DNA of 64,000 nucleotides from Myxococcota bacterium (GCA_965250285.1 OZ252299.1:5248001-5312000); one strand, 5' to 3'. Positions 692-63,980 are shown, counted from the first letter of the stretch. The notes: a model not told the origin generated them from the sequence alone. Numbers and translations: made by a program.

Positions 692-827
692 TCGGCTTTT
701 CGGGGGTGTCGTCCTCAGATTCCGGCTCGCTGGCTTTACGGGGACGGGGTGTTTTCGCTCGGAGCGGTCGGGGGAGCTGGTGTTGGCGCTCGCCTCCAAC
801 TTGCGGGCGCCACCCCCGAAAAGCCGA
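692..827 (+). repeat. Structured hairpin repeat family A, copy 1
   Basis: TCGGCTTTTCGGGGGTGTCG-TCCTCAGA ... CAACTTGCGGG-CGCCACCCCCGAAAAGCCGA; terminal inverted arms; homologous to 6 other copies in the window. Confidence 0.9.
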
Positions 828-900
828 ACGAACCGGCTCCAGTTCGCGAGGGAGAGGGGTCGAAGGCGCGTCGCGCTCATTGGGCGCGCCTTGCGGGGGA

Positions 901-2199
901 TCAGTCGGTCGGGGGGATGATCGGGGGGGTGAGGAGCGGGGATCTCAGCAGGCCGGCTTCGACGGCCTGGCGAACGGCCTTCGTGTCGGCGAGGGGGCCG
1001 GGGATCGGGGCTCTTCGCCGGGCGAACTGCTGGGCGTTGTCGGTGTAGAAGGTGCGGTGCGCTTCCATCGATGCCCAGGCGCTCGGGATCGAGGCCAGAG
1101 AGAGCGTGATCGTCGAGAGCAGGACGAGGGCCGATCGGTTGCGGCTGGGCTTCAGGCCGTGCGCCTGAAGGAAGGCGACGAAGGTGAGCGCCATCAAGAG
1201 ATGCGAGTACACCCGGTACCGCGAGTCGAAGGCCTGGTCGAGGCCGAAGCCGAACCGCGTAAGCGCGACCGAAGCGAGGGTGAGCAGCACGAAGGTCATC
1301 GCCGCGAACACGCGCGGGTCGCGCCGCCATGTCGAGCCGAGCGCGATCACGACGTAGGCGACGCCGAGACCCCAGCCCGCGAAGCGCGCGAGCCAGCCGA
1401 CCCACGCGTCATCGAACGACACGCCGCCGCCGACGAGCGTGCAGAGATAGTCGAAGGCGGCGACCGGCGACGCGAACGCAGCGAACGGGCTCGGGTGGTG
1501 CTCGGGGCGCGCGTAGTCTGCGAAGTAGAGCGCGATGCATACGAGGGCCCAGACGCCGAATGCGGTCGCCTGCGACCAGGCGCGGGCGTGCAGCAAGAGC
1601 CCGAGGCCGACCGCGAACGTGAAGACGCCGGCCCCCAGGTTCAGGAACGCGAGGGTCGCGAAGAGCGCACCCAGCGCCGTGCGCAGCGGTGTCGGCTTCG
1701 AGAGGCATTCGATCGAGATCAGCGCGCAGAGCAGCATCGGATAGTGCTGGGCTGCGCCGGTCGCCCAGGTCGCAGCCTGCCAGTGCTGCAGCGTGAAGAG
1801 CAGCACGAAGATCGGCGCGGCCGCAAACACACGGTCGGCTCGCGCGCCCGCCGGCAGCCAGCTCGCAACGAGCGCGGCGACGCCGATCAGGCAGGCATTG
1901 CCGAGCCACATCACCGCGCGCAGGTCGAGGTGCCCCGCCGTCGCCGTCACGCCCGCGAAGAACGCCCGCGCCGTGAATGGCCGGTGCTCGTTGTGCAGCG
2001 CGAGCCAGCCCTGGCCGTCGTGGCCGAGCAAGAACCGTACGAAATCGACGTCGTCTTCGACCGGGACGTCGATCGCGAAGAGCCCGAGCGCGACGAAGTA
2101 GAACACGACGGCGGCGAGCGCGACGCAGAAGGCGATGCCGGCGAGCACCTCGCCGTGCCGCGAGGGGGCCTCGTCGACGGCCGGTGCGGGCTGCGTCAT
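901..2199 (-). CDS. Polytopic membrane protein, putative GT-C-type glycosyltransferase
   Basis: Many TM segments; acidic DD motif in the first loop (DVPVEDDVDF) followed by HNEHR; ATG at 2199. Confidence 0.55.
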   Translation of the reverse strand: MTQPAPAVDEAPSRHGEVLAGIAFCVALAAVVFYFVALGLFAIDVPVEDDVDFVRFLLGHDGQGWLALHNEHRPFTARAFFAGVTATAGHLDLRAVMWLGNACLIGVAALVASWLPAGARADRVFAAAPIFVLLFTLQHWQAATWATGAAQHYPMLLCALISIECLSKPTPLRTALGALFATLAFLNLGAGVFTFAVGLGLLLHARAWSQATAFGVWALVCIALYFADYARPEHHPSPFAAFASPVAAFDYLCTLVGGGVSFDDAWVGWLARFAGWGLGVAYVVIALGSTWRRDPRVFAAMTFVLLTLASVALTRFGFGLDQAFDSRYRVYSHLLMALTFVAFLQAHGLKPSRNRSALVLLSTITLSLASIPSAWASMEAHRTFYTDNAQQFARRRAPIPGPLADTKAVRQAVEAGLLRSPLLTPPIIPPTD

Positions 2200-2404
2200 G
2201 GGCTCGCTCTCGGCCAATCCAGTTCCTCGTTCGTCGTGCGTGGACGCCCCGGCTCGACGACGCAGCGTCGTCGAGCGGCTGCATGATAGACTGCGCGGGG
2301 CTTCTTCGGCGCGCGCGGCTCCGCTCGGCCCGAGCGAGCGGTCGCTGGCGGGCGTTCGGCGTGACCTCGGCTGAGGAGCGAGCGAATCCGATGAGCCGAT
2401 CCCG

Positions 2405-7579: not shown

Positions 7580-10392
7580 GCGCGACCGAACCGATTCACG
7601 TGCGTGCGCCGGTCACCCTCGAGATCGACGGGCGGTCGGTCACGGTCGAAGCGGGGACGTCGCTCTACGACGCGATCGTGCAGTCGGGGGGCGACGTGCC
7701 GGTGCTCTGCCACGACCCCAAGCTGCGGCCGGTCGGCGTGTGTCGCGTATGCTCGGTCGAGGTCGAAGGAGCACGCACCCTGGTGGCTTCGTGCGTGCGT
7801 GATGCCGAGCCGGGCATGGTCGTGCGCACGCAGAGCGAGCGCGTGCGCCGCGCGCAGACGGGTCTGGTCGAGCTGCTCATGGCCGAGCAGCTCGAAGCGT
7901 CGCGCCGCGAAACCGAGACGGGCGACGACCTGCTCTTCGATCTCGCGCGCGCACTCGACGTCGATGCAGCGCCGCGGTCCACGCGCGCGCGCCCGGTCGA
8001 CGATTCGTCACCGGTGATCCACGTCGATCACCAGGCCTGCATCCTGTGCGATCGCTGCATTCGAGCCTGCGACGAGGTGCAGTGCAATCACGTGATCGGG
8101 CGAACGGGCAAGGGGGGCAGCGCGCGAATCGCCTTCGATCTCGATCAGCCGATGGGCGAGTCGACGTGCGTGAGCTGCGGCGAGTGCGCGGCGGCCTGCC
8201 CGACGGGCGCGCTCGTCGATCAGGGCCTGCAGGCGCCCCTTCGGCCGCGTGAGGTGCTCGAGCCGGTCGACTCGGTCTGCCCGTACTGCGGAGTTGGGTG
8301 CGCGGTGCGATACCACGTCGATCGCGACGCCAACCAGGTCGTCTTCGCCGAAGGCCGAAGCGAGCGTGGCAATCAGGGTCGGCTCTGCGTGAAGGGGCGC
8401 TACGGCTGGGACTACTCCGGCCACGCGCATCGCCTCACGAAGCCGCTGATCCGCGTCGACTACCCGAAGCGTGCGCTGTCGACCGAGGTGCAGGGGGCGC
8501 AGCGGAGGCGCGGCAAGCCGGGCGGCGTCGTCGACTACGACGAGGTGATGCCGGCCTTTCGCGAAGCCAGCTGGGAAGAGGCGCTCGATCTCGTAGCGGC
8601 TCGGCTCGGCGCGATTCGCGACACCGACGGCCCGTCGGCGCTCGCGGGCTTCGGTTCGGCCAAGTGCAGCAACGAAGAGGCGTATCTCTTCCAGAAGCTG
8701 GTGCGCGTCGGCTTCGGCACGAACAACGTCGATCACTGCACGCGGCTATGCCACGCCTCGAGCGTGGCTGCGCTGCTCGAGATGATCGGCTCGGGTGCCG
8801 TCACGACGAGCTACGGCGACGTCGTCAATGCCGAGCTGGCGCTCGTCACTGGCAGCAACGCGAGCGCGAACCATCCGGTCGCTGCGACGTTCTTCAAGCA
8901 GGCGGCGGCCGCGGGCACCAAGCTTCTGATCGTCGACCCTCGCTGGACGCCCCTTTGCGACCACGCCTGGCGCTTCTGCCAGATTCGATCGGGCACCGAT
9001 GTCGCCTTCTACAACGCGATGATGCACGTGATCATCGAAGAGGGTCTCGTCGACGAGGCGTACGTTCGCGCGCACACGCGCGACTTCGAGCGCGTCGCCG
9101 AGAACGTGCGCGACGTGACACCCGAGCGCGCAGCGGCGATCTGCGGCGTGCCTGCCGAGACGATCCGCGAGGTCGCTCTCGAGTACGGCCGCGCGAAGGG
9201 GGCGATCACGTACTGGGGCATGGGCATGAGCCAGCACGTGCACGGCACCGACAACTGCCGCTGCATCATCTCGCTCGCCTTGATGACGGGTAATATCGGT
9301 CGCCACGGCGCGGGGCTGCACCCTCTGCGCGGACAGAACAACGTGCAGGGGGCAAGCGACGCGGGCCTGATCCCGATGGTCTTCCCCGACTATCAGCGCG
9401 TCGACGACGCCGAGGTGCGCGCGAAATTCGAGGCGGCGTGGGGCGTCGAGCTCGATGGCGAGCCGGGGTTGACCGTCGTCGAGATCATGAAGGCGGCCGG
9501 GCGGGGCGAGATCAAGGGCATGTACATGCTCGGCGAGAACCCGTTTCTCAGCGATCCCGACACGAACGCGGTGCGCAAGGCCCTCGCGAGCCTCGACTTC
9601 CTCGTGGTGCAGGACATCTTTCTCACCGAGACGGCCGAGTTCGCCGACGTCGTGCTGCCGGCCACGAGCCAGCTCGAGAAGTCGGGCACGTACACGAACA
9701 CCGATCGGCGCGTGCAGCTCGGTCGCCCCGTCGTCACGCCGCCCGGCGAGGCGCGCCTCGACTGGCAGATCATCCAACAGCTCTCGACCCGGCTCGGCTA
9801 CGCCATGGCGTACGAATCGACCGAGCAGATCTTCGACGAGATGACCGCGCTCACGCACGCGTACCAGGGTCTCTCCCACGACCTGCTGGGCGCCGACGGC
9901 AAGCTCTACCCCTGCGACGATCCCGAGCACGAAGAGGGCACCGAGGTCATGTTCGGCGACGGCTTCCCCACCGAGGACGGGCGCGCGCGCTTCGTGCCCG
10001 CCGTGCACGCGGGCGCCGACGAGCTGCCCGACGCGCAGTACCCGTTCGTGCTCGTGACGGGTCGTGTGCTCGAGCACTGGCATACTGGTGTGATGACCCG
10101 CCGGGCCAAGGCCCTCGCGGCCATCGAGCCCGAGGCGTTCGCCGACCTGAACGAAGACGATGCGGCTCGCCTCGGGGTCGCGACCGGCGACTGGGTGCGC
10201 ATCGCGTCGCGTCGCGGTGAGATTCGACTCGCTGCGCGGGTGGGGACGAGCGTGCAGCCGGGCTCGGTCTTCGTGCCGTTCCACTTTCGCGAGGCCGCGG
10301 CGAATCTGTTGACGAATCCGCGGCTGGATCCGGATGGGAAGATTCCGGAGTTCAAGTTTGCGGCGGTGACGGTGGAGGCGGATCGGGGGTGA
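7576..10392 (+). CDS. fdhF: Formate dehydrogenase alpha subunit (Mo/W-bis-PGD, Cys ligand)
   Basis: N-terminal 2Fe-2S and 4Fe-4S domains; CPYCGVGC, RLCVKG, DHCTRLCHAS and LRGQNNVQG; C-terminal PEFK; ATGA overlap with the upstream gene. Confidence 0.92.
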   Translation: MSATEPIHVRAPVTLEIDGRSVTVEAGTSLYDAIVQSGGDVPVLCHDPKLRPVGVCRVCSVEVEGARTLVASCVRDAEPGMVVRTQSERVRRAQTGLVELLMAEQLEASRRETETGDDLLFDLARALDVDAAPRSTRARPVDDSSPVIHVDHQACILCDRCIRACDEVQCNHVIGRTGKGGSARIAFDLDQPMGESTCVSCGECAAACPTGALVDQGLQAPLRPREVLEPVDSVCPYCGVGCAVRYHVDRDANQVVFAEGRSERGNQGRLCVKGRYGWDYSGHAHRLTKPLIRVDYPKRALSTEVQGAQRRRGKPGGVVDYDEVMPAFREASWEEALDLVAARLGAIRDTDGPSALAGFGSAKCSNEEAYLFQKLVRVGFGTNNVDHCTRLCHASSVAALLEMIGSGAVTTSYGDVVNAELALVTGSNASANHPVAATFFKQAAAAGTKLLIVDPRWTPLCDHAWRFCQIRSGTDVAFYNAMMHVIIEEGLVDEAYVRAHTRDFERVAENVRDVTPERAAAICGVPAETIREVALEYGRAKGAITYWGMGMSQHVHGTDNCRCIISLALMTGNIGRHGAGLHPLRGQNNVQGASDAGLIPMVFPDYQRVDDAEVRAKFEAAWGVELDGEPGLTVVEIMKAAGRGEIKGMYMLGENPFLSDPDTNAVRKALASLDFLVVQDIFLTETAEFADVVLPATSQLEKSGTYTNTDRRVQLGRPVVTPPGEARLDWQIIQQLSTRLGYAMAYESTEQIFDEMTALTHAYQGLSHDLLGADGKLYPCDDPEHEEGTEVMFGDGFPTEDGRARFVPAVHAGADELPDAQYPFVLVTGRVLEHWHTGVMTRRAKALAAIEPEAFADLNEDDAARLGVATGDWVRIASRRGEIRLAARVGTSVQPGSVFVPFHFREAAANLLTNPRLDPDGKIPEFKFAAVTVEADRG

Positions 10393-10403
10393 GTGGCCGG
10401 GGG

Positions 10404-10536
10404 TTCGCATTCTGGGGGCGGCGTCCTCAGACTGCGTCGGGCCCGCCTTGCCGCGTTGAATCGATGTCGCCGGAGGCGCCGCGTCTTGCTCGGGCTGGCC
10501 CGACTTCGATTGCGGGCGCCGCCCCCAGAATGCGAA
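10404..10536 (+). repeat. Structured hairpin repeat family A, copy 2
   Basis: TTCGCATTCTGGGGGCGGCG-TCCTCAGA ... TTCGATTGCGGG-CGCCGCCCCCAGAATGCGAA. Confidence 0.9.
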
Positions 10537-10606
10537 GTCGGATCGCCTCGGTCGCAACGCATCGTTGGCGCAGACTCGAGGCTCCTTTGGATGGGGTAAA
10601 GGGGCG

Positions 10607-11878
10607 CTAGAAGCGGTCGAGGTGCCAGGTGGCGGAGAGGAGGCCGAGGCGGAAGGTGGGGCAGTCGGTCGGGCCGGGGAGGGTGAGGCTCGTCGTTCGC
10701 TCGCCCTCGGCCGGGATGTCGGCGACGTCGACGGCGGCACCGGTCTCGCCGCAGTCGATCTCGATCGTGGCCGTGGCGACGGCGCGCGGCGCGCGGTTGC
10801 CGATGGTCACATCGAACTCGAGACGTTCGCCGCCGTGGTTCACGCCCCGCGCTTTGAGGTCGAGCCAGGGGCGAATGTCGTGTCGCCGATCGCCGGGGCT
10901 CGGGTCGAGGTGGATCCGCTTTCGATCGTGATCGATCTCGACGCGGAACTGGCTCGAGACGTTCAGGCCGAGCAGCCCCGACCGGCCGGGCGCCGTGCAC
11001 GAAGGGCACGCCGCCACCGTCACCCACTCGACCGGCGCGTCGCCGAGCCAGACGGCGTCGAGCAGCACGAGCGGCGCGTCGATCGGGCCGCCAGCCGTGT
11101 TGAGGGTCACCCGCGGCGCATTGCGCGGCACGTCGACGTCGATCTCGGCCAGGGCGTCGGGCGTCACCGTGGTGAACGAGGCGCCCGTATCGAAGATCAT
11201 GCGGAACCGGTCGCCGAAGTCGGGCCCATCCAGAGCGACCTCGACATCGAGCTCGCGGCCGTCGCCTCGGTAGGCCAGCACGACGGGCGCGGTCGGTGCG
11301 GGATCGGGGCGCGCGACCGGGGTGCGGGTCGAGGGGCGGGGCGCCGTCTCGTCGGGCTGCGGCTTCGAAGCGGAGGGTGACGTCGCGGCCTGGGGCGTGG
11401 CGATCGCGAGCGGCTCGGGGGGCTTCTCGCCCTCGGCGCCGAGCCAGCTGGCCAGGGTGCCGACGAAGCTCCCGGCCGGCTCACGCAGCGGGCCGAGGTG
11501 CGCCGCGAAGAGCACGTCGGCGCCGCGGCGCGCCGCTTCACGGCGCTCGCCGGGGGCGAAGCCCGGCACGGTCAGGAGGAGGGCGATTGTCCAGATCCAG
11601 GCCGAGAGGACTCGGGCGACCCGGCGGCCGGCGTCCGATGAGCCGGCGCCGATCGCGCGAAACCCCGATGCGAGCCCGACGACCGGCAACAGCGCCACCG
11701 CGAGCGCCGCGGTGAGGGCGAGCGACGTCGATGCCCCCGTTTGCAGCCCGAGGCCCAGCAGTACGCAGGTCGCGACGCCAAGGGGTACCCCGAGAACCAC
11801 GGCCTCGACCGCGACGTCGAAGGCACGGATGGGACGCGGTGAGCGAGTGGATCCGAGCCGACTCATGGGACGGTGCAT
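10607..11878 (-). CDS. Membrane-anchored retropepsin-like (clan AA) aspartic protease
   Basis: IFDTGAS catalytic motif, TAGG flap and GLLGLN; N-terminal TM helices and a Pro-rich linker; start uncertain. Confidence 0.8.
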   Translation of the reverse strand: MHRPMSRLGSTRSPRPIRAFDVAVEAVVLGVPLGVATCVLLGLGLQTGASTSLALTAALAVALLPVVGLASGFRAIGAGSSDAGRRVARVLSAWIWTIALLLTVPGFAPGERREAARRGADVLFAAHLGPLREPAGSFVGTLASWLGAEGEKPPEPLAIATPQAATSPSASKPQPDETAPRPSTRTPVARPDPAPTAPVVLAYRGDGRELDVEVALDGPDFGDRFRMIFDTGASFTTVTPDALAEIDVDVPRNAPRVTLNTAGGPIDAPLVLLDAVWLGDAPVEWVTVAACPSCTAPGRSGLLGLNVSSQFRVEIDHDRKRIHLDPSPGDRRHDIRPWLDLKARGVNHGGERLEFDVTIGNRAPRAVATATIEIDCGETGAAVDVADIPAEGERTTSLTLPGPTDCPTFRLGLLSATWHLDRF

Positions 11879-12045
11879 CTCCCTCGCGCGGTCGCTGTCT
11901 CGCGTGCTGGCTCCGGCGCTCGCTGCCGGGCCGGCGCCGGGCCCGCTCGCTCACCCGATCAGCCGGATCGTGGGGCGACGACCGGTCCTTCATGGATGCT
12001 GCCCTCGAACGTATCGTTCCGGCACCCTGCTAACATCCCGCGATC

Positions 12046-12924
12046 ATGCGTAGCCGGACCGACCGACTCCGACAGCGCTCCCTCGTCATCCTGGTCACGC
12101 TGCTGGTTTCGGCCCAGACCGGGTGCTCGCTCATCATGGGGCGGGTCACTTCGGGCGTGGCCGACAGCCTGACGGTGGCCGTGCTGGCCCAGGATGATCC
12201 CGAGCTCGTGCGCGATGGTGCTCCTGCGTACCTGATCGCGCTCGATGGCTTGATCGAGGGAGATCCCGACAACCTCGACCTGCTGATGAGCGGCGCGAGC
12301 CTCTACGGCTCGTATGCCGGCGCGTTCGTCGAAGATCCCGAGCGGGCCGCGCGGCTGGCGACGCGCGCTCGCGGCTACGGCGACCGCGCGATCTGCGTGC
12401 GCAAGAAAGAGTTCTGCGGGCTCTCGGAGAAACCCTTCGACGAGTTCGTCCTCGCGCTCGATGACGTGAAAGAGAAGGATCTGCCCGCGCTCTACAGCTA
12501 CGGCAGCGCCTGGGCGGGCTGGATCCAGGCGAACTCGGCCGACTGGGCCGCCATCGCCGACCTGCCCAAGGTGCAGGCCGTCATGGAGAAAGTGGTCGAG
12601 CTCGACCCCGAGATCGAGGACGGCCAGGCGTGGATGTACCTCGGCGTGCTCTACACGCTGCGCCCCGCCTCGCTCGGTGGCAAGCCCGAGAAGGGCCGGG
12701 AGGCCTTCGAGCGCGCACTCGTCGTCTCGAACCGGCGTAATCTCTTCGTCCATGTGATGTACGCCAAGCAGTACGCCCGGCTCGTCTTCGACCAGGAGCT
12801 GCACGACGCGCTGCTCACCGAAGCGCTCGAGGCCGATCCGGTCGAGCCCGATCTCACGCTCATCAATACGATTGCCCAGCAGCAGGCGGCCGACCTGCTC
12901 GAAGACGGCAAGGACTACTTCTGA
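12046..12924 (+). CDS. tatT: TRAP transporter T-component lipoprotein (TatT)
   Basis: Lipobox-like QTGC, DDPELVRDGAPAYL, PASLGGKPE and YARLVFDQELHD; first gene of a dctPQM operon. Confidence 0.85.
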   Translation: MRSRTDRLRQRSLVILVTLLVSAQTGCSLIMGRVTSGVADSLTVAVLAQDDPELVRDGAPAYLIALDGLIEGDPDNLDLLMSGASLYGSYAGAFVEDPERAARLATRARGYGDRAICVRKKEFCGLSEKPFDEFVLALDDVKEKDLPALYSYGSAWAGWIQANSADWAAIADLPKVQAVMEKVVELDPEIEDGQAWMYLGVLYTLRPASLGGKPEKGREAFERALVVSNRRNLFVHVMYAKQYARLVFDQELHDALLTEALEADPVEPDLTLINTIAQQQAADLLEDGKDYF

Positions 12925-12999
12925 TCCACTCTCAAGCCGCGCGCGGCCGCCGCCTCTGAGCGCACGGCCCGCCGCGTGATCCATTTTCGAGGAGACGAC

Positions 13000-14037
13000 A
13001 TGCTGATCTCGAGAGAGGCCCGGACGCGGGCGCTCGCCTGGGCCCTCGCGCTCTCGCTGGTGGTGGGTGCCGCCGGCGCAGCCACCGCCAAGACCCTGAA
13101 GCTCGCCACCGTCATGCCCGACGGCAGCAGCTGGCTCGTCGAGATGCGCGCCGCAGGCAAGCAGATCGAGACCGACACCGACGGTCGGGTCAAGATCAAG
13201 TTCTATCCCGGCGGCGTCATGGGCAACGACAAGACCGTGATGCGCAAGATCCGCGTGGGCCAGCTCCACGGCGGCGCCTTCACCAGCGGTGCCCTCGCGC
13301 CGGTCTATCCCGACATCGACCTCTACAGCCTGCCGCTCCTCTTTCGCACGTTCGACGAGGTCGACTACGTGCGCGAGCGCACCGACGACACGCTCAAGGA
13401 AGGGCTCGAGCAGGCCGGCTTCGTGCCGCTCGCGCTGACCGATGGCGGCTTTGCCTACATCGCGTCGCAGGAGCCCCTGCGCCAGGTCGAAGATCTCTCG
13501 GGCGCGAAGGTGTGGATGCCCGAAGACGACATCATGAGTGAAACGGCCTTCGAGGTCGCGGGCGTGGCGCCCGTGCCGCTGCCGATCGCCGACGTCTACA
13601 CGGCGCTGCAGACCGGCCTCGTCGACACCGTAGCGGCGCCGCCGGCAGGCTTCATCGCCTTTCAGTGGCACACGAAGGTCAAGTACTTCACCGACGTGCC
13701 GTTGATGTATCTGATCGGCATCCTCGCCGTCGACGCGAAGTCGTTCTCGAAGCTCTCGGCCGAAGACCAGCAGGTGGTGCGAAGCCGCTTCGCAGAGGCT
13801 GCGGTGAAGCTCGACGCCGAAAACCGCAGTGGTGACGAGAACGCGCGCGACGCCCTCAAGAAGCAAGGCATCGAGTTCATCGCGGCTTCGAGCGACGAAG
13901 AGGTGGCGCGCTGGCAGCAGATGAGCGAAGACACGCGCGCGAAGCTGCGCGAGCTCGATCGCTATGACGACGGTCTGATCGACCGGATCCTGCAGTACCT
14001 CGACGAGTATCGATCGGGCACGGCCGCGAACCAGTGA
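13000..14037 (+). CDS. dctP: TRAP substrate-binding protein
   Basis: Signal peptide; LKLATVMPDGS, FYPGGVMG and DVYTALQTGLVD. Confidence 0.92.
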   Translation: MLISREARTRALAWALALSLVVGAAGAATAKTLKLATVMPDGSSWLVEMRAAGKQIETDTDGRVKIKFYPGGVMGNDKTVMRKIRVGQLHGGAFTSGALAPVYPDIDLYSLPLLFRTFDEVDYVRERTDDTLKEGLEQAGFVPLALTDGGFAYIASQEPLRQVEDLSGAKVWMPEDDIMSETAFEVAGVAPVPLPIADVYTALQTGLVDTVAAPPAGFIAFQWHTKVKYFTDVPLMYLIGILAVDAKSFSKLSAEDQQVVRSRFAEAAVKLDAENRSGDENARDALKKQGIEFIAASSDEEVARWQQMSEDTRAKLRELDRYDDGLIDRILQYLDEYRSGTAANQ

Positions 14038-14582
14038 GTCTCGAAGATCAAGCGGAGCATCTGGGGGACGATCCGCCCGGCGCCGACGTCGAAGCGGGTC
14101 TCATTGGTGTCGTGCACAAGATCGAGGATGCGTTTCTCTCTCTCTTGCTCGGCGTCATGGTGTTGCTCGCGCCACTCCAGATCTTCTTGCGCAACTTCTT
14201 CGACGAAGGCGTGACCTGGGGCGATCCGCTGCTCCGGGTGCTCGTGCTCTGGGTCGGTCTGCTCGGCGCCGTCAGCGCCGCGCGCGGCGACCGACACATC
14301 ACGATCGACGTGCTCTCGCGCTTCGTCGGCGACAAGCTGCGTCTCTCGCTGCGCATCGTGACGAGTCTCTTCACCGTCATCGTCTGCGGGCTCGTCGCCT
14401 GGTACAGCGGTGAGTTCGTCGCCCTCGAGCGCGAGTTCGAGAGCGAGGCCTTCGCGGGGATGCCCGCCTGGATCATGCAGGTCGTGATCCCCTTCGCGTT
14501 CGCCGTGATCGGCCTGCGCTACCTCGCTTACGCCGTCGGCGACGGCATGCGGCTCGCGCGCGGGGAGGGCCCCGGCGAATGA
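14034..14582 (+). CDS. dctQ: TRAP small permease
   Basis: 4 TM segments and HITIDVL; overlaps both neighbours. Confidence 0.9.
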   Translation: MSLEDQAEHLGDDPPGADVEAGLIGVVHKIEDAFLSLLLGVMVLLAPLQIFLRNFFDEGVTWGDPLLRVLVLWVGLLGAVSAARGDRHITIDVLSRFVGDKLRLSLRIVTSLFTVIVCGLVAWYSGEFVALEREFESEAFAGMPAWIMQVVIPFAFAVIGLRYLAYAVGDGMRLARGEGPGE

Positions 14583-15853
14583 TCTCGCTGCTGCTCATTC
14601 TGCTCGCGCTCGCTGGCGCGCCGCTCTTCGCCGTGATCGCCGCAAGCGCGATGCTCGGCTTCTCGAGCGAAGACGTCGACCTCTCGGTGATGGGGATCGA
14701 GATCTACCGCCTGGCCGAGATGCCGGTGCTGCTGGCGATCCCGCTCTTCACGTTCGCGGGCTATCTGCTCGGCGAGAGCGACGCCCCGAAGCGGCTCGTC
14801 CGCCTGACCAATGCACTGCTCGGCTGGCTCTCGGGCGGTCTCGCGATCGTATCGCTCGCCGCGTGCGCGCTCTTCACGGCCTTCACGGGTGCGTCGGGTG
14901 TGACGATCGTCGCGCTCGGTGCGTTGCTCTACCCCGCGCTTCGCCAGGCGAACTACAGCGAGAAGTTCAGTCTGGGTCTCGTCACGACGTCGGGTAGCCT
15001 GGGCCTGCTCTTCGCGCCGGCGCTGCCGCTCATTCTCTACGGTGTCGTCGCGCAGCAGATGGATCTCGATGAGCCCGTGCGGATCGACGACCTCTTCGCG
15101 GCCGGGCTGGTACCGGGTCTGCTGATGGTGGTGGCGCTCTCGATCTACAGCATGTGGGCCACGCGCGGCGGTGTCGAAGAAGAGCGCCAGGCCTTCACGT
15201 GGGGGGAGGCCTGGGGGGCGATCAAGGACGCTGGCTGGGAGATCCCCCTGCCGCTCGTCGTGCTGGGTGGCATCTACGGTGGCTTCTTCGCGCTGAGCGA
15301 AGCGGCGGCGGTCACGGCGCTCTACGTGCTCGTCGTCGAGGTCGGCATTCGGCGCGAGATCAAGCTGACCGCGCTGCCCGCCGTGATGCGAGAATCGATG
15401 GTGCTCGTCGGAGCCATCGTCGTGATCCTCGGCGTCTCGCTCGCGTCGACCAACTACATGATCGACACCGAGGTGCCGACCCGGCTCTTCGACGTGATCC
15501 GCGCGCACATCGACAGCAAGCTCACATTCCTGATGCTGCTCAACATCTTCCTGCTCGCGCTGGGGATGATGCTCGACATCTTCTCGGCGCTGGTCATCGT
15601 GGTGCCGATTATCCTGCCGATCGCCATCGGCTACGGCATCCATCCCGTGCATCTGGGCATCATCTTTCTCGCCAACATGCAGATCGGCTACATCACGCCG
15701 CCGGTCGGGATGAACCTCTTCATCGCGAGCTATCGCTTCGAGAAGCCGGTGCTCGAGGTCTACAAGGCGACGGTGCCGTTCTTCGTGATCCTGTTGGTCA
15801 GCGTGCTGATCATCACGTACTGGCCGGCGCTCTCGCTCTTCTTGATCCAGTAG
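14579..15853 (+). CDS. dctM: TRAP large permease
   Basis: LLAIPLFTFAG, GIHPVHLGII and ITPPVGMNLF. Confidence 0.93.
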   Translation: MISLLLILLALAGAPLFAVIAASAMLGFSSEDVDLSVMGIEIYRLAEMPVLLAIPLFTFAGYLLGESDAPKRLVRLTNALLGWLSGGLAIVSLAACALFTAFTGASGVTIVALGALLYPALRQANYSEKFSLGLVTTSGSLGLLFAPALPLILYGVVAQQMDLDEPVRIDDLFAAGLVPGLLMVVALSIYSMWATRGGVEEERQAFTWGEAWGAIKDAGWEIPLPLVVLGGIYGGFFALSEAAAVTALYVLVVEVGIRREIKLTALPAVMRESMVLVGAIVVILGVSLASTNYMIDTEVPTRLFDVIRAHIDSKLTFLMLLNIFLLALGMMLDIFSALVIVVPIILPIAIGYGIHPVHLGIIFLANMQIGYITPPVGMNLFIASYRFEKPVLEVYKATVPFFVILLVSVLIITYWPALSLFLIQ

Positions 15854-15869
15854 CGGCCTCGCGGTGGGG

Positions 15870-17114
15870 TCAGGCTTTGCTCTCGGCTGCGGCTGCGGCT
15901 TCGGCTGCCGGCGCACCCGGCACGCGCAGCCAGGCGAGCAGCACGGCGGCGATGCCGATCGCACCGACGAAGAGCTGCAGCGCGGTCACGTAGCTGCCCG
16001 TCGTGTCGCGGCTCCAGCCTGCGATCGGGTAGCCCAGCATCACCAGCACGCTGATCGCGGGTGAGATGAGGCCCATCGCGCGGCCGAAGCTCGCGACGCC
16101 GAACACCGCGGCGACGAGCGCGCCCCAGATCGGCAGCATGCCGCCGGTAGCGAGCCCCATGAGCACGGCTGCGACATAGAGCACCCACTGCTTGGGCTCG
16201 ATCGCGAGCAGCGCTATGCCAACGCCAGCGAGGAGCAGCGCGAGCCAGAGGCCGACACGAAGCGGAATGCGATCGGCGAGCGCACCGAAGGCGAGTTTGC
16301 CGATGAAGCCGAAGAAGGCGATGGTGCTCAGCAGCTGCGTCGCGAGCGAGGCGTCGAACGAGAGCGTCTCGACGTACTTGCCGAGGTTGCTCATCACTGC
16401 GGTGTAGCTCATGAAGAGGAGCCCGAGGCAGAGGCTCATCAGCCAGTAGCCCGGCGCGCGCAGAATGTCGGGCGTCGTCCACGCCTCGCTCGGCGCGTTG
16501 GCAGCCGAGGGGGCGGCCGCATCGGCGCCGTCCGGGGTCGGCTGTGCCGGCGGATGATCTCGGAGCGCGAACACGAGCAGCGGCGCCACGGCCACCACCA
16601 CGGTCGCGGCCAGCGCGCGCATCGCGCCGCGCCAGCCGAATTCACCGATCCAGAGCTCGAGCAGCTGCGGCAGCACGACGCCGCCTACCGACGTGCCCAT
16701 CGCCGCGATGCCGAGGGCCTTGCCGCGATTCTCGTCGAACCAGCGAGAGACGACCGCCGAACCGGTGAGCGGCCCGAGCAGCGTGGCCCCGGTGCCGATC
16801 AGCAGCGCGAAGACCAACGCGAACTGCGTGACGCTGGTCGAGACCGACATCAGCATGAGTCCGGCCGCGAGCGAAGCGCAGCCGATCAGCATCAGGCCTC
16901 GCGCCGACCAGCGATCGACGAGCGGGCCGAAGAGCGGGGCCGATGCGATGCCGGCGAGCCCGGCGCCGGACATGCTCCACATGACGTCGGTGACGCTGGC
17001 GTCGAACGCCTCCTGAACGGGCACGACGAAGAGCGGAAACCCGTACGAATAGAAGCCAGACATGAAGAGCTGCGCGACGAAGACGCTCGCGACGATCCAC
17101 CAACCCGAGTGCAT
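15870..17114 (-). CDS. MFS transporter (monocarboxylate/OFA-like)
   Basis: 12 TM segments; GPLVDRWSAR, SRWFDENRGKALG and GALADR. Confidence 0.85.
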   Translation of the reverse strand: MHSGWWIVASVFVAQLFMSGFYSYGFPLFVVPVQEAFDASVTDVMWSMSGAGLAGIASAPLFGPLVDRWSARGLMLIGCASLAAGLMLMSVSTSVTQFALVFALLIGTGATLLGPLTGSAVVSRWFDENRGKALGIAAMGTSVGGVVLPQLLELWIGEFGWRGAMRALAATVVVAVAPLLVFALRDHPPAQPTPDGADAAAPSAANAPSEAWTTPDILRAPGYWLMSLCLGLLFMSYTAVMSNLGKYVETLSFDASLATQLLSTIAFFGFIGKLAFGALADRIPLRVGLWLALLLAGVGIALLAIEPKQWVLYVAAVLMGLATGGMLPIWGALVAAVFGVASFGRAMGLISPAISVLVMLGYPIAGWSRDTTGSYVTALQLFVGAIGIAAVLLAWLRVPGAPAAEAAAAAESKA

Positions 17115-17251
17115 TCGGTCTCGTCCTCGCTGGCCCTTCGGGCCGTGCACTGCACCGCCACGTGCGCCGCGCCGGTGGACGACGCGACGGCGCCGCGCCT
17201 CGCGTCGAGCCTAGTCGAAACCGGCGCCGGTCACATCGAGGACCGAAAGCC

Positions 17252-18517
17252 TCAGGTGAGTGTCTTCGCGGCGTGACGAGGCTCGGAGAGCACGAACGTC
17301 ATGGCGCCCGCGATCGTCAGGCTGAGCGCGACGAGGACGAACGTGAGCGTGTAGCCCGTCGCATCGATCAGCACGCCGAACAGCGGCGACGCGGCGAGCG
17401 CGACGACCGAGGACACCTGCGTGAGCGAGAGCGCCTGCGGGTGCTGGTCGCGGGGCGTGATCTCGAGGACGTAGTTGGCGAAGACGCGCAGGACCACCGG
17501 CGTGAGCCCGACCCCGACGAAGATCAAGGCGTAGAGCCGTCGGCCCAGCGCAGGCTCGAGGTGGGCGATGAAGAGCGCGAGGAGCGGGGTCGCGGCGCTC
17601 GCGAAGATCGACACGCGCAGACCGAGGCGATTGCCGGCCCGGTCGACCAGCGGGCCGACGAAGAGCGTGATGACGGCCATCGACAGGTTCTGCACGACGA
17701 CCCAGACCATCCAATCGACGCCGCCCAGGCCGAGACGGTCGCGGGCCAGCGCCTGATAGTGGGGCAGGAGCGCCAGCGAAGTAATGAAGAAGACGTTCAG
17801 CACGACCGCGCGGCGCAGGTCGACGTTCGTGCGCAGCAAGGTCACAGCCACGCGAAACGCGCCGGGCTCGTCATCGGTGGTGGGCTCGGGCGGGTCGGGG
17901 TGCTCCTTCAGGAACGGAGTCGACGCGGCGGCGAGTGAGAGCAACAACCCGACGAACAGAAAGGACCAGGCGAAGCCGAGTGTGCCGGGCAGCTCGAGCC
18001 AGCCGGGGAGCAGCCACCACGCACACAGCGCAGCCAATGCGGCGCCCACCGACGTGCTCACCGCCATCAGGCGGCCGCGATGCTCGGGTGCGATCAGCTT
18101 GCCCTGAAGGCTGCCCTGGGCGTTGCCCCAGATGCCCGTCGAGACGAAGAACACCGCGTAGAGGGCGAGAAAGACCCAGACCAGCCAGGGCGGGGCGGCC
18201 TGCTCGCCGAGCACGAGCAGCAGGAGGCCGATCGCACCGAACGGCACCGCCATGGCCGCCGAGGCGCCGAAGTAGACGCGCTTCTTGAACGGCGCGCGGT
18301 GAATGCGAGCCGCCAGCAAGAAGGGCGGGACCGACTGTGCCACGCGATTCACGATGGGCAGCAGGCCGCGAACCCAACCCGCGCCCGACACGGCATCGAC
18401 GAAGGCCGGCACGATGACGCTCTCAGTCTTGAAGATCCAGCCGATGCGACCGAGGACGAAGTTGGCCGCCATGATCGCCGCGTTGCGCGGCTCGTGCGGG
18501 GCGGCTTCGCGATCCAC
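17252..18517 (-). CDS. MFS transporter
   Basis: 12 TM segments; KLIAPEHRGRL and GPLVDRAGNR; GTG start overlaps the argS stop. Confidence 0.8.
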   Translation of the reverse strand: MDREAAPHEPRNAAIMAANFVLGRIGWIFKTESVIVPAFVDAVSGAGWVRGLLPIVNRVAQSVPPFLLAARIHRAPFKKRVYFGASAAMAVPFGAIGLLLLVLGEQAAPPWLVWVFLALYAVFFVSTGIWGNAQGSLQGKLIAPEHRGRLMAVSTSVGAALAALCAWWLLPGWLELPGTLGFAWSFLFVGLLLSLAAASTPFLKEHPDPPEPTTDDEPGAFRVAVTLLRTNVDLRRAVVLNVFFITSLALLPHYQALARDRLGLGGVDWMVWVVVQNLSMAVITLFVGPLVDRAGNRLGLRVSIFASAATPLLALFIAHLEPALGRRLYALIFVGVGLTPVVLRVFANYVLEITPRDQHPQALSLTQVSSVVALAASPLFGVLIDATGYTLTFVLVALSLTIAGAMTFVLSEPRHAAKTLT

Positions 18518-20256
18518 TACATGCGATCGGGTGCGGCGACGCCCAGGAGACCGAGACCGGTCTTCAGCATCGATCGAGCGGCGACGACCAGCGCGAGGCG
18601 CGCGTCGCGCAGCGCGTCCTCGGCACCGAGCACGTGGTGGTCGCGCAGATAGCTGTGGATGTCGCCTGCGAGGTCGATCATGAGCTTGGTGATCACGCTC
18701 GGCTCGTTCTGGGCCGACGCGCGCTCGAGGGTCGGCCCGAACTCGAGCATGGTGAGCAGCACCTGCTCGGCGTCCTCGAGCAGCGCCCAGTCGACGTTCG
18801 TCGGGTCGAGGGGGACGCCGCCCTGCTCGTCGAGGGCGCCGGCGTTGCGCAGGATGCCCGAGAGCCGCGCCACGGCGAACTGGACGTACGGGCCGGTTTC
18901 GCCATCGAAGTTCAGCATGGCGTCCCAGTCGAACTTCACGTCCTTGATGCGCGCGTTCTTCAGATCGTTGAAGACGATGGCCGACACGCCCACCTGCTCG
19001 GCGACGTCGTCGGCGTTCTCGAGGTCGGGGTTCTTCTCGGCGATGATGCGACGCACGTTCGCCACTGCCTCGTCGAGCACCTCATCGAGAAAGATCGCGT
19101 TGCCGCCTCGCGTGGCGAACTTCTCCCACTTCCCCGTGTCTTCGTTCTTCGCGAGGATCAAGCCGAAGGGCACGTGCTCGATGTGTTCGGCCTGGGGCAA
19201 CCCCATTTTCGAGATGACTTCGCGCAGCTGCTGAAAGTGCAGCTTCTGTTCACTGCCGACGACATAGAGCGCGCGATCGAAGTGAAACGTCTCCATGCGG
19301 TAGAAGATCGCGGCGAGATCGCGCGTCGCATAGATCGTCGTGCCATCGCTCTTTCGCAGGATGCAGGGCGGCATGTCGTCGCCGAAGGCGACGACCTCGG
19401 CGCCCTCGCTGGTCTCGAGGATGCCCGCTTCGGCAACGCGCGCGACGGCGGCCTCCATCTTGTCTTCGTAGAAGCTCTCGCCGGTGAAGTGGTCGAAGTC
19501 GACGCCGAGGCGAGCATAGGGGCCTTCGAACGCGGCCAGCGAAATGTCGCGCAGGCGGTTCCAGAGCTGGCGCTCGGCGTTGTCCTCGCCCGACTCGAGG
19601 CGCCGGAAGTTCTCGGCGCTCTCTTCATCGAGGGCCCGATTCGTCTTGGCTTCGCGCCCGTAACGCACGTAGATCTCGAACAGGTGCCGCATGGGGCTCG
19701 CTTCGAGCTCGGCGTCGGATCCCCAGTGCCGGAAGGCCGTGATGATCTTGCCGAACTGGCTGCCCCAGTCGCCGAGATGATTGATGCCGTGCACCTCGTG
19801 CCCGAGATGTCGGTGGATCTTGCAGAGCGCGCTGCCGATCACGGTCGAGCGCAGGTGACCCATGTGGAAGGGCTTGGCGATGTTCGGTGACGAGTAGTCG
19901 ATGACGATCACTTCGCCGGTCGACTTCGCCGGCCCGAAGGGGGCGACCCCGTCGCGGATGCCGGTGATCACATACTCGGCGAGGGCCGAGCGCCGGAAGC
20001 GGAAGTTGACGAAGGGACCCGTCGCGACGGCCGACTCGAGCACGGCGTCGGGCGTGAACGAAGCGGCCAGCGCCTCGGCGATCTTCGGGGGCGCCTGCTG
20101 GCGCAGCTTGGCGAGCGGGAAGCAGCCGAGGGCGACATCGCCGAACTTGCGATCCTTCGGCGGCTGCAGGCGCAGCTGAGCCGCGACCTCGGGGGGGACA
20201 TCGCCCACCGCGGCCTCGACCAGCTGCTCGAGATGTGTCGTCGGATCCCCGCCCAC
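18517..20256 (-). CDS. argS: Arginine--tRNA ligase
   Basis: DYSSPNIAKPFHMGHLRSTVIG, NHLGDWG, KSDGTTIYATRDLA and FDGETGPYVQ; C-terminal PDRM. Confidence 0.95.
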   Translation of the reverse strand: MGGDPTTHLEQLVEAAVGDVPPEVAAQLRLQPPKDRKFGDVALGCFPLAKLRQQAPPKIAEALAASFTPDAVLESAVATGPFVNFRFRRSALAEYVITGIRDGVAPFGPAKSTGEVIVIDYSSPNIAKPFHMGHLRSTVIGSALCKIHRHLGHEVHGINHLGDWGSQFGKIITAFRHWGSDAELEASPMRHLFEIYVRYGREAKTNRALDEESAENFRRLESGEDNAERQLWNRLRDISLAAFEGPYARLGVDFDHFTGESFYEDKMEAAVARVAEAGILETSEGAEVVAFGDDMPPCILRKSDGTTIYATRDLAAIFYRMETFHFDRALYVVGSEQKLHFQQLREVISKMGLPQAEHIEHVPFGLILAKNEDTGKWEKFATRGGNAIFLDEVLDEAVANVRRIIAEKNPDLENADDVAEQVGVSAIVFNDLKNARIKDVKFDWDAMLNFDGETGPYVQFAVARLSGILRNAGALDEQGGVPLDPTNVDWALLEDAEQVLLTMLEFGPTLERASAQNEPSVITKLMIDLAGDIHSYLRDHHVLGAEDALRDARLALVVAARSMLKTGLGLLGVAAPDRM

Positions 20257-20344
20257 GGGTGGCGCCTCCGGTTCTGGAAGCGCCCACCGTTAGCTCAACT
20301 CCGGATCGCGCGTCCACTTGAGGGAGCGGGGTGGGTTGCACGGG

Positions 20345-20476
20345 CGCGTTTTCGGGGGTGGCGTCCTCAGACTCCGGCGGGCCGGCCTTGCGGGCGGCGT
20401 TCTTTGGGGGGGCCATCGTGAGATGAGAGACTGGCTGGCCCGCCTTCGACTTGCGGGCGCCACCCCCGAAAACGCG
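20345..20476 (+). repeat. Structured hairpin repeat family A, copy 3
   Basis: CGCGTTTTCGGGGGTGGCG-TCCTCAGA ... TTCGACTTGCGGG-CGCCACCCCCGAAAACGCG. Confidence 0.9.
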
Positions 20477-20673
20477 AGCGTTGCGGAGCGACGCCGCGCC
20501 AGGGGCGTGGCCCGCACGATCTCTTCGCGGGGGGCAGACGCGGCCTGCGGCCGCGTCTGACATCTCCCTCTCTCTATTGCCTGGTGGCGGCCCGCCGCTG
20601 CTCCGTTCGACTGGGCGTGTCGGTCGGCCGACGATCCAGGCGCACGCGGGCGATCCGGCGCCGCGCGCCGCCT

Positions 20674-20808
20674 TCGGGTTTTCGGGGGTGGCGCCCGCAA
20701 GTTGGAGGCGAGCGCCACCCCCACCCCGGCGCCCGCCCCGAGCACAAACGAAGGGCCGCCGCACAGCCCGCGAGCCGGAATCTGAGGACGACACCCCCGA
20801 AAACCCGA
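20674..20808 (-). repeat. Structured hairpin repeat family A, copy 4 (inverted)
   Basis: The + strand reads CCCGCAAGTTGGA ... TCTGAGGA-CGACACCCCCGAAAACCCGA, the reverse complement of the copy 1 type. Confidence 0.9.
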
Positions 20809-20934
20809 CCCCAGCACCCGCCCCCACAATCTCCACACACCGCCTCGTCCCGCCCCCACCCGCCCCCCGACCGTTCCGGTACGATTGCCCCCGACAGGCT
20901 CTCTTCCCCCCCCTGTGCGACCGCCGGAGCCACC

Positions 20935-23181: not shown

Positions 23182-23295
23182 TCGCCGCGCGCTCGGCGGA
23201 CACTTCGCCAGAATAATCCGAAACGAAATCAGCCACTTGTGAGATCGCCGGGCCCGTCCCACGGAACTCATCCGAAAGCGCTGCCATGCAGTAGA

Positions 23296-23317
23296 TCTAC
23301 CAGATATATCTGGTAGA
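23296..23317. promoter_or_regulatory. Perfect 22-bp palindrome, probable PadR autoregulatory operator
   Basis: TCTACCAGATA|TATCTGGTAGA, ending 9 nt before the padR ATG. Confidence 0.75.
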
Positions 23318-23326
23318 CTGATTTGT

Positions 23327-23923
23327 ATGGCCCAATCCAATCGAACTGCATACGCCCTGCTCGGCTTTCTGACGCGCGGCCCCATGTCGGGCTACGACAT
23401 CAAGAAGGCCGTCGAGGGGAGCGTCGACAACTTCTGGAACGAGAGCTTCGGGCAGATCTATCCGACGCTGCGCCGGCTCTCGGATGAAGGGCTGATCGAC
23501 AAGGAAGAAGCGGCCACGCCGGGCGGCAGACCGCGTCACGTCTACGCGATCAACGCCGCAGGGCGTGAGGCGCTCGCCCAGTGGCTGCGTGAAGACACGC
23601 CGCCCCCGCCGGTTCGGATCGAGCTGCTGCTCAAGCTGTTCTTCGGCATTCAGGCCGATCGCGAGACGAATCGGGCGCAGATCCTCGCGTATCGAGAGCG
23701 GATGACGAGCGACCTGGCGCGCTACCGCGCCATCGCCGATGCACTGCGCGCCGAGAAGCACGGGAACGCCGAGCTGCCCTACTGGCTCTTGACCCTGCGC
23801 TTCGGTGAGCGCGACCGACAGGCGCACATCGATTGGTGTGACGAGGCGCTCGAGATGCTCGACCAGCTTCCGAACCCGGGCGACACCCGCCGCACGTCGG
23901 CAATCGAGGAGTGGACACGATGA
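23327..23923 (+). CDS. PadR-family transcriptional regulator (long, AphA-like C-terminus)
   Basis: GPMSGYDIKK, FWNESFGQIYPTL, RHVYAINAAGREAL and ELLLKLFF. Confidence 0.9.
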   Translation: MAQSNRTAYALLGFLTRGPMSGYDIKKAVEGSVDNFWNESFGQIYPTLRRLSDEGLIDKEEAATPGGRPRHVYAINAAGREALAQWLREDTPPPPVRIELLLKLFFGIQADRETNRAQILAYRERMTSDLARYRAIADALRAEKHGNAELPYWLLTLRFGERDRQAHIDWCDEALEMLDQLPNPGDTRRTSAIEEWTR

Positions 23924-25365: not shown

Positions 25366-25378
25366 CCCGCGACCGCGC

Positions 25379-26626: not shown

Positions 26627-26894
26627 GCCGTGCCTCCTCGTCGTGCGTCGGGTCTGCCTTCGGGTTGCGCACGCACCCGAACGGCGAGCATAGCCGCTCG
26701 ATCGAGCGGGGGCGGATTCATGCCGACCGGGCCCGGCCTTGGGGCGCGATCTGCGCATGGGTTGCGACGCCGGCGCCGGTTCGGCGTCACGCAGATGCGT
26801 AGGGTATCCGTACAGCACGCTCTCGATTCGGCCGATACGTCATGTAGATCACACTCCTCGAGCGCGGCGGCTCGAGCCTGCAGGAGCAAAGACC

Positions 26895-27458: not shown

Positions 27459-27533
27459 CGCGGCCGGCGCCGCTCACGCGCCTCTCCGACGCCGCCACCG
27501 CCAGCCGCGATCTCATGGGATAGCCTCTGGCTC

Positions 27534-47328: not shown

Positions 47329-47461
47329 CGGCTTTTCGGGGGTGTCGTCCTCGGATTCCGGCTCGCTGGCTTTACGGGCCCCAGGCGCTTTCGCTTGCCT
47401 TGAGGCGCCGGGGTGTTTTGGCGCTCGCCTCCAACCTGCGGGCGCCACCCCCGAAAAGCCG
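47329..47461 (+). repeat. Structured hairpin repeat family A, copy 6
   Basis: CGGCTTTTCGGGGGTGTCG-TCCTCGGA ... CCAACCTGCGGG-CGCCACCCCCGAAAAGCCG; closest to copy 1. Confidence 0.9.
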
Positions 47462-61720: not shown

Positions 61721-61721
61721 C

Positions 61722-62594: not shown

Positions 62595-62748
62595 GGCTCA
62601 AGGGCTCCCGGTGGCAGAGCCATGATACATTGCGGTGCACCCGCCGATCTCGTGTGATGCGCCGCGCGGGGCGTGGTGCGGGCGCGGTGCGGGCGTGGTG
62701 AGCGCGGCCAGCGCGAGTGTGATGTGCGCGTGACGCGCGAGACAGAGG

Positions 62749-63843
62749 ATGCCGTCGACGATGACCCAGCGCCGTCCCTTGCGTCGCGATGCCGAGACCG
62801 GTCGCGTCGAGATCCTCGATCAGACCCGACTGCCCCACGAGGTCGTGTGGGTCGAGCTCGGAGATCTGGCTTCGGCCGCCGAGGCGATCCGTTCGATGCA
62901 GGTTCGGGGCGCACCGTTGATCGGTGCGGTCGCCGCTTACGGGATCGCGCTGGCCCTCGATGCCGACGCGAGCGACGCAGCGCTGGCCGAGGCGACGGCG
63001 ACCTTGCAGGCGACGCGCCCGACCGCCGTCAATCTCGCCTGGGCGCTCGATCAGGCGAACCAGGCGGTGGCCGACGTGGCGCCCGATGCGCGCGCCGGCG
63101 TCGCGTACGCGCTCGCCGATCGGATCTGCGATGACGAGGGTGCGCGCTGCGCAGCGATCGGGCGGCATGGCGTCGAGCTGATTCGAAAGGTGGCCGAGAG
63201 CCGATCGGCGGGGCCGGTGCACGTGCTGACCCATTGCAACGCGGGCATGCTCGCGACGTTCGACTACGGCACGGCGCTGGCCCCGATCTACATGGCCTTC
63301 GAGGAAGGCATCGACGTTCATGTCTGGGTCGACGAGACGCGGCCGCTCGATCAGGGCAGTCGACTCACGGCGTGGGAGCTGGCCGACGCGGGCGTTGCGC
63401 ACACGGTCATCGTCGACAACGCGGGCGGGCACCTGATGCAGCACGGACAGGTCGATCTGTGCATCGTCGGCAGCGATCGCACCACGGCCCACGGCGACGT
63501 CTGCAACAAGGTCGGCACCTACCTGAAGGCGCTGGCCGCGTTCGACAACGGCGTGCCCTTCTATGCCGCACTCCCGACGAGCACGATCGACTGGTCGATG
63601 AAGGACGGGGTCGCCGAGATCCCGATCGAGGAGCGCGCACCCGACGAGGTGCGCGACAGCGTCGGCGTCGACGAGGCCGGCGAGCTGCATCGGGTTCGGC
63701 GCTTCGCTGCATCGACGCCGGTCGCGAACTACGCGTTCGACGTGACGCCGGCGCGGCTGGTGACGGGGTTGATTACCGAGCACGGGGTTGTGGGGGCTTC
63801 GGCCGCGGGGGTGCGGGGGTTGCGGGAGCGGGGGCTTAGCTAG
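62749..63843 (+). CDS. mtnA: S-methyl-5-thioribose-1-phosphate isomerase
   Basis: ILDQTRLP, MQVRGAPLIG, TRPTAVNL, LTHCNAG, DETRP, NKVGTY and AFDVTP; start 62749 or 62761. Confidence 0.93.
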   Translation: MPSTMTQRRPLRRDAETGRVEILDQTRLPHEVVWVELGDLASAAEAIRSMQVRGAPLIGAVAAYGIALALDADASDAALAEATATLQATRPTAVNLAWALDQANQAVADVAPDARAGVAYALADRICDDEGARCAAIGRHGVELIRKVAESRSAGPVHVLTHCNAGMLATFDYGTALAPIYMAFEEGIDVHVWVDETRPLDQGSRLTAWELADAGVAHTVIVDNAGGHLMQHGQVDLCIVGSDRTTAHGDVCNKVGTYLKALAAFDNGVPFYAALPTSTIDWSMKDGVAEIPIEERAPDEVRDSVGVDEAGELHRVRRFAASTPVANYAFDVTPARLVTGLITEHGVVGASAAGVRGLRERGLS

Positions 63844-63848
63844 GCCGG

Positions 63849-63980
63849 GTCGCATTTCGGGGGCGTCGTCCTCAGACTGCGGCGTGCCGTTTTTCTTGGG
63901 GCGGGCGGTCTTGCTTGTGCCGTTGGGGGTGGGTCGGGCTGGCACGCCTTCGATTGCGGGCGCCGCCCCCGAAATGCGAC
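63849..63980 (+). repeat. Structured hairpin repeat family A, copy 7
   Basis: GTCGCATTTCGGGGGCGTCG-TCCTCAGA ... TTCGATTGCGGG-CGCCGCCCCCGAAATGCGAC. Confidence 0.9.

Follow-up and report, generated by a model that had tools for sequence, protein, structure and literature searches.

A 64,000-nucleotide stretch of a Myxococcota bacterium genome (GCA_965250285.1, OZ252299.1:5248001-5312000; the window, with positions counted from its first letter) carries seven copies of a long intergenic hairpin, here called family I, and raises the question of where such a repeat comes from. An earlier note, made from the window alone, had located the seven copies, all of which we find where it placed them, and had read them as structures under selection that a protein recognises, much as in REP/REPIN-RAYT systems. 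Our analysis points to another source. The seven hairpins are probably old relics of the 3' end of an IS5 insertion sequence (IS), now devoid of transposase, inverted repeats and target duplication.

Results

[quoted passage not shown] Sequence comparison establishes the family I core as homologous to an optional hairpin of IS5 elements, which follows the stop codon of the transposase gene and precedes the right inverted repeat. Genome G170 holds an intact IS5 with the hairpin (57 bits) at this place, the one carrier among 30 DDE loci examined from the order. The same genome has 23 pattern matches to the hairpin and displays a decay series, with the intact IS followed by a MITE that has two ends, fragments that have one, and hairpins on their own; the G170 hairpins are accompanied by the IS tail and repeat remnants, and 4 of 12 copies score over 3 with the IS5 end matrix. 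A second element of the G170 lineage, in G055, has a weaker hairpin in the same place and on the same strand (27.9 bits with model R2). The hairpin is present in the elements of 2 of the 15 genomes of this lineage and absent from 13, including the closest (84% identical).

Another intact IS5, in six equal-scoring copies with the hairpin inside a 168-nt 3' end, was found in G090 because a transposase remnant in a second hairpin family of G000 (family II) led there. Three of the 13 genomes of the G090 lineage whose elements have a located right repeat carry the hairpin (G068 by pattern only), and the elements of the remaining ten have 3' ends without it. These hairpin-less 3' ends (L484-L495) measure 119-131 nt from stop codon to terminus, consist of largely free sequence with a small recurring stem, and in this echo the hairpin's own centre, free in sequence and fixed in length. 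Both carrier transposases pass NF033581; they are 28% identical over 145 residues and their inverted repeats differ. A 5' tag adjoining the hairpin is common to family I and the IS-borne form.

Other structures were observed around IS5 elements of related genomes. In G077, an internally deleted IS5 (L380/L449) has kept both repeats and the transposase tail, and its 3' position is taken by another long hairpin, of -68.7 kcal/mol. About six of the G170 hairpin copies (L394, L398, L399, L402, L440, L447) have beside or inside them a small element whose inverted ends are of the GGGGACGG type and which may target these hairpins; ends like GGGGACGG flank a Y1 subclass-2.1-like gene in G051 (L270).

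In family II we count 36 homologous hairpins, scattered over 28 sites of G000 and lying within IS5 MITEs that have TAG ends, inverted repeats and remnants of both the N- and the C-terminus of the transposase. The right repeat is kept in 23 of the 36 (score over 3 with the IS5 end matrix). Family II is an IS5-family MITE whose module duplicates in tandem, in arrays with a 135-bp period and up to four hairpins (G000 5764158-5764640), and collapses out. Two such MITEs lie in the window (Table 1), and the hairpin of one of them is missing from the earlier list of seven, which is otherwise accurate. At G000 4335431 a family II hairpin is apparently inverted relative to its own repeats.

All seven family I copies of the window are indeed intergenic, with five of them 2-21 nt downstream of a + strand stop codon (Table 1). 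Their neighbours are ordinary genes (argS, ppk, lysyl-tRNA synthetase, transporters, oxidoreductases), and along the window copies the housekeeping neighbours are spaced 8-19 kb apart. The inverted pair occupies a gap between divergent genes. In agreement with the earlier note, none of the 53 window proteins that were scanned belongs to a transposase family. The fixed length of 132-136 bp likewise holds; the perfect outer arms measured 16-17 bp rather than the proposed 20 or so. Folded as DNA, the seven copies have z-scores of -3.2 to -6.4, and for each copy none of 200 shuffles was equal.

Table 1. Hairpin-related features of the window
Feature	Position	Strand	Remarks
Family I hairpin (A), singleton	692-827	+	begins 21 nt past a TAG stop
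Family I hairpin, singleton	10404-10536	+	directly past molybdopterin oxidoreductase stop (TGA)
Half-unit, fullest in the window	20299-20558	+	terminal motif and tag, then hairpin A, a spacer and the small hairpin B
Family I hairpin, left partner of inverted doublet	20345-20476	+	argS/ppk gap
Small hairpin B, shortened form	20537-20557	+	about 60 nt beyond hairpin A; same spacing in congeners
Family I hairpin, right (inverted) partner of doublet	20674-20808	-	
Family I hairpin, singleton	28150-28282	+	past SIS-domain gene (stop TAG)
Family II IS5 MITE, hairpin collapsed out	30842-30937	+	both inverted repeats retained
Family II IS5 MITE	35454-35667	+	TAG and left inverted repeat, homologous hairpin (core 35538-35615), decayed right repeat
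Family I hairpin, singleton	47329-47461	+	past enoyl-CoA hydratase gene (stop TGA)
Family I hairpin, singleton	63849-63980	+	directly past IF-2B-family gene (stop TAG)

The repeat unit exceeds the hairpin, and copy 20345 can be aligned to copies of two other genomes over the whole of the half-unit, which in full is about 260 bp long. Two half-units often face one another, giving doublets of about 350-645 bp. The terminal motif, found about 45-56 nt outside some copies, was tried as an IS5 repeat and rejected (best scores 3.0 and 2.8 with the two matrices); the folding model accounts for it better as a strand of the outer helix, in which it is predicted to pair with the spacer and so close a rod of about 250 nt. 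When 13 long copies are folded in consensus, the opposite, IS-sense strand forms such a rod with the better energy (-52.7 versus -40.5 kcal/mol), and the rod's terminal helix shows one-sided G.U/G-C changes. Hairpins folded one by one give the better structure on the strand shown in 24 of 25 cases. In one family I copy (L007:3037-3205; G000 5231037) a short tandem repeat lengthens the centre by about 30 nt, with arms and cores intact.

Covariation of the arms, as claimed from the seven copies, was borne out genome-wide. When 19 copies of the genome were aligned, 17 of 38 pairs had changed on both sides, amounting to 67 two-sided cells against 17.3 in shuffled alignments (0 of 500 as high), and 86% of the cells were paired, as compared with 41-52% in slid controls. 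Outer-arm columns 5-19 had no wobble changes at all. Over 80 of the 91 copies known from three genomes, with 42 distinct arms, 1229 of 1280 outer-arm cells were Watson-Crick pairs. Conservation is highest in the mismatched cores, as had been noticed (mean identity 0.88, with 0.80 in the inner stem, 0.71 in the outer arms and 0.49 in the centre), and their mismatches at 27/117, 33/110 and 35/108 are kept in 19 of 19 copies; on the strand shown they set pyrimidine against pyrimidine, and on the opposite, transposase-sense strand they are rich in G.A. The centre is free in sequence and near-constant in length: across the three genomes, 79 of 80 copies measure 94-101 nt from core to core. The inner stem is weaker than was thought, since a 2-nt mismatch interrupts it in three of the seven copies (692, 20674 and 47329).

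In the 6.25 Mb, single-contig genome G000 we count 25 family I copies (23 by nhmmer and 2 by covariance model) at 19 sites, 6 of them doublets and 13 singletons. The host looks Myxococcota-like by its MglA/MglB-type genes. Thirteen copies, at 10 of the 19 sites, are clustered within 5.231-5.319 Mb, while 20,000 random draws from long intergenic gaps gave at most 6 per 90 kb. Ten of the 13 singletons face a convergent stop on their far side, and two of the six doublets lie between divergent genes. Relative to replication, 11 of 13 singletons are oriented alike on the leading strand (p 0.02, the sites being non-independent), and for family II the figure is 14 of 28. A pair of sites at G000:C1:4909119 and 4909157, which we take to be parS-like from the consensus, lies near the GC-skew minimum (4891305), 320-410 kb from the cluster.

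Family I is a non-coding repeat of the whole genus, and two congeneric genomes have as many copies of it or more, often at the same sites, each genome with its own variant. Among congener sites with a mappable flank, 19 of 43 are filled in G000 too, as are 12 of the 19 that are fully syntenic; the other seven are empty in G000, and at these diverged sites neither a sharp boundary nor a duplication was seen. Proteins flanking the sites shared by the three genomes are mostly 70-93% identical. Many congener-specific sites fall in the same chromosome region, which is enriched in all three genomes. The copies group by genome (9 changes versus 40.2 when shuffled), and with left and right doublet members matched by gene side, the orthologous copy is among the top three of 23 in 7 of the 22 pairs and comes ninth or lower in 13. 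Sites persist and the sequences at them get replaced. One copy, at 5237555, has decayed in place. Related intergenic stretches were observed at L479 and L480 (G000 2899039 and 210069); L479 has hairpin B without A, and there the third genome carries a doublet.

Only the congener G001 matched among 68 genomes of the taxonomic family searched with R1 (39 of 47 candidates scored), and the 17 loci of a metagenome scan all belong to one assembly of the third relative. Shorter relatives of about 110-130 nt, in 1-6 copies and mostly in gaps between convergent genes, are found in six other genomes of the order. L274 (G044), a short near-perfect hairpin after a tandem repeat that ends in a family I-like tag, is possibly a collapsed relative. 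This distribution is a lower bound, since few candidates per genome are scored when a model is run over many genomes (21 in one search, which missed G170). A loose-pattern scan of genome contigs gave mostly chance matches, with 2 true hairpins among 100 checked of 106 loci, and order- and class-level pattern scans stayed near control level outside the carrier genomes. No carrier was found among the viral-contig loci scored (3 of 3 in one scan, 15 of 19 in another), further viral scans brought up nothing of relevance, and plasmids had no meaningful match for the hairpin of either family. Contigs from four sequencing runs covering 9500-29400 contained no clean empty-site joint, and their joints at copies resemble cross-mapping.

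Discussion

Family I is, on its sequence, IS5-related and by definition not a MITE: it lacks IS5 repeats and target duplications, and its members are therefore better termed IS5-derived relics than MITEs proper. We infer that descent ran from IS5 to family I. An IS5 transposase would first have scattered MITEs and fragments of the right end among intergenic gaps on the 3' side of genes. Switching of template by the polymerase may then have copied one arm from the other, leaving arms that are specific to each copy and perfectly paired. Such copying is suggested because point mutation rarely gives two-sided changes of this kind at low divergence, and template switching between inverted arms can yield them, as described in PMC8794818, PMC7202029 and PMC8604942. 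Recombination or gene conversion among copies could subsequently have replaced them in place by the current variant of the genome, and conversion favouring neighbours could have produced the doublets and the cluster; re-insertion would be an alternative to conversion. The invariant G.A-rich core on the transposase-sense strand would likely be read by a protein for the propagation of copies, and recognition of the bulges by a protein, as earlier proposed, is possible. Any role for the host would be at most that of 3' stem-loops of the REP or ERIC (enterobacterial repetitive intergenic consensus) kind.

Several observations weigh against this derivation from IS5. Terminal repeats of IS5 type are missing from family I (whichever of the two IS5 end matrices is used, a score over 3 is reached by 0 of 87 copies), and TAG stands at the place expected for a target duplication in 1 of 75 copies. 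The adjacent stop codon is TAG in 27 of 54 cases, at variable distance, as against 27% genome-wide and 39% in convergent gaps, which is a mild bias. The search for a parent IS that carries the centre, flanks or hairpin B of family I found none. R1 had no match on the IS hairpin of G055 and gave that of G068 only 9.8 bits. Family II does not cluster (1 of 28 sites in the cluster region). Copying between arms leaves the core mismatches unaccounted for, and the patchy occurrence of the module on two such different transposases suits an independently moving hairpin equally well. The derivation does not account for one module on two distant ISs, for in-place replacement with no transposase found, or for clustering in three genomes. 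Searches with PF01609, PF13340, PF13586 and the G170 transposase had no match in G000 or in G001 (83% complete), and the sole trace of an IS5 transposase in G000 is a 61-aa remnant. A profile of the G170-type transposase, and of that type rather than the G090 type, showed no similarity in the far-side 400 nt or in the six-frame genome.

An alternative, which we rate as unlikely, takes the hairpin for a small mobile module, comparable to ssr9, that is carried by IS5 3' ends and can also move independently of them, with family I as its free form. An enzyme acting in trans would read the core and prefer existing copies and stop-proximal sites, which would give doublets, reoccupied sites and the cluster. 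Its occurrence at one position and strand in two distant IS5 lineages while most close relatives are without it, the tandem arrays and the collapsed hairpin-less MITE of family II, the missing IS termini of family I, and the shared sites at which the orthologous copy often ranks low in similarity all speak for such a module, as does the strand bias of the singletons, although that bias comes from 13 non-independent sites. No mobiliser was found, however, with no Y1 gene in G000 or G001 and none among the neighbours; empty orthologous sites lack a sharp boundary or target duplication, and the G170 hairpin moves together with IS tail and repeat remnants. A bolder version is doubtful, though we would not rate it below the last: the hairpin would be a 135-bp unit hitchhiking on at least two distant IS5 lineages, at one spot and strand, and IS-free in the genus, where a putative protein would read the G.A-rich core, re-target occupied sites and overwrite a 90-150-kb region with the variant that the genome currently has. 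The analogous but far less probable idea, now largely refuted, is that the hairpins are REP, REPIN or BIME-type substrates of a RAYT (TnpA-REP) nuclease. Their inverted doublets, the G-N-W-G tag outside each hairpin and the conserved stem mismatches resemble group 2 REPs and BIMEs as described in PMC8266576. Yet no PF01797 match, and so no Y1 transposase, was obtained in G000 or G001 (the control of that search matched 6 of 14), no RAYT gene flanked by copies was found, and five other carrier genomes together hold a single Y1 gene, whose locus has no hairpin. The tag is GTAG in 3 of 75 (GTTG 44, GGTG 10, GCTG 10), the hairpin is some 135 nt long as against 20-50 nt for REPs, and the IS5-borne form, in whose 3' ends the hairpin is at home, bears the same tag.

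A further alternative is that family I, whatever its origin, has been domesticated. The host would keep it either as a structured RNA end, to stabilise convergent transcripts or act as a roadblock between them, or as a landmark, bound by a protein, for the chromosome region that lies 320-410 kb from the parS-like pair. As for the selection that the earlier note had read into the arms, the structured repeat is real; as proof of selection, covariation is weakened, as it is seen in ordinary MITEs too. Two-sided and one-sided arm changes number 49 and 19 in family I of G000, 17 and 17 in family II, and 14 and 6 in G170, and arm covariation alone does not amount to selection because two-sided changes occur also in young, ordinary IS5-derived copies. 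We consider domestication improbable, more so than a mobile module. Sites common to three genomes between well-conserved flanking proteins, enrichment of one region in all three with lineage-specific sites included, the better folding of the extended rod on the IS-sense strand with its one-sided changes, and the convergent stops faced by most singletons would fit it. Against this stand the seven empty syntenic sites, the doublets between divergent genes, decay in place as at 5237555, the preference of single copies for folding on the non-IS-sense strand, and the scarcity of outer-arm wobble (G.T in 5 cells on the top and 16 on the bottom strand, of 1280), unlike typical RNA stems. No Rfam family matched, either in the window at gathering score or at E<=1 in eight loci.

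Other candidates were considered. Integron attC sites, which were rejected, end in RYYYAAC/GTTRRRY boxes, occur one per cassette gene and have an integrase nearby; the hairpin ends lack such boxes, the neighbours are housekeeping genes and the nearest tyrosine recombinase is about 150 kb away. Likeness to hammerhead, kink-turn and attC was dismissed by eye against the consensus. A scan of the genome for HUH/RAYT motifs gave no convincing candidate, and Y2 (IS91) transposases had no match in the genome in a search whose control matched 0 of 14 genomes.

Taken as an IS-derived palindromic repeat, which it is, the family can be set beside known systems. MITEPsy1, an IS5-family MITE of 100 nt with 18-nt terminal repeats and a CTAG/YTAA duplication according to PMC3189936, belongs to a class with which family I shares a likely IS5 origin and a non-coding, multicopy, intergenic nature; family I differs in having no terminal repeats or duplication, an internal 3'-end hairpin instead of paired termini, and doublets and a cluster. 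The stem-loops of Borrelia are likewise IS-derived, transposase-free, placed at gene 3' ends and marked by compensatory changes; as described in PMC3184786, they stem from IS200/IS605 ends and measure 32-51 nt, whereas here the source is the 3' end of a DDE IS5 and the units span 135-260 nt. Like the present hairpin, ssr9 of ISPpu9 is an optional module downstream of a transposase gene that also occurs solo; in the account of it in PMC12288879 it belongs to the IS110 family and circular intermediates are shown, in contrast to two distant IS5 lineages and putative solo movement here. REPs, BIMEs and REPINs share with family I the intergenic imperfect palindromes, inverted doublets, foot tag and stem mismatches, on the descriptions in PMC8266576 and PMC6006769. 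Family I differs from REPs in being three to six times longer, in lacking a fixed GTAG and a RAYT gene, and in numbering tens rather than hundreds of copies. ERIC, about 127 bp long and classed as a MITE in PMC3184786, is also a long imperfect hairpin near gene 3' ends; it resides in another host group, and family I, set apart from it by description and not by sequence, has copy-specific arms and an identified IS source. The literature covered, mostly open-access, yielded no account of such a hairpin module at IS5 3' ends.

An intergenic palindrome family that was unclassified is now tied to a concrete source. The stages spread over related genomes, from intact IS, MITE and one-ended fragment to solo hairpin and terminus-free doublets, form a natural series for the origin of REP- and ERIC-like repeats, and strong covariation between arms in ordinary MITE copies cautions that it need not imply a functional RNA. 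If the bolder version of the mobile module were true, the hairpin would count as a non-autonomous parasite of insertion sequences, or else as a domesticated regional landmark, and a module that moves between unrelated IS5s or marks a region of the chromosome would be new biology.

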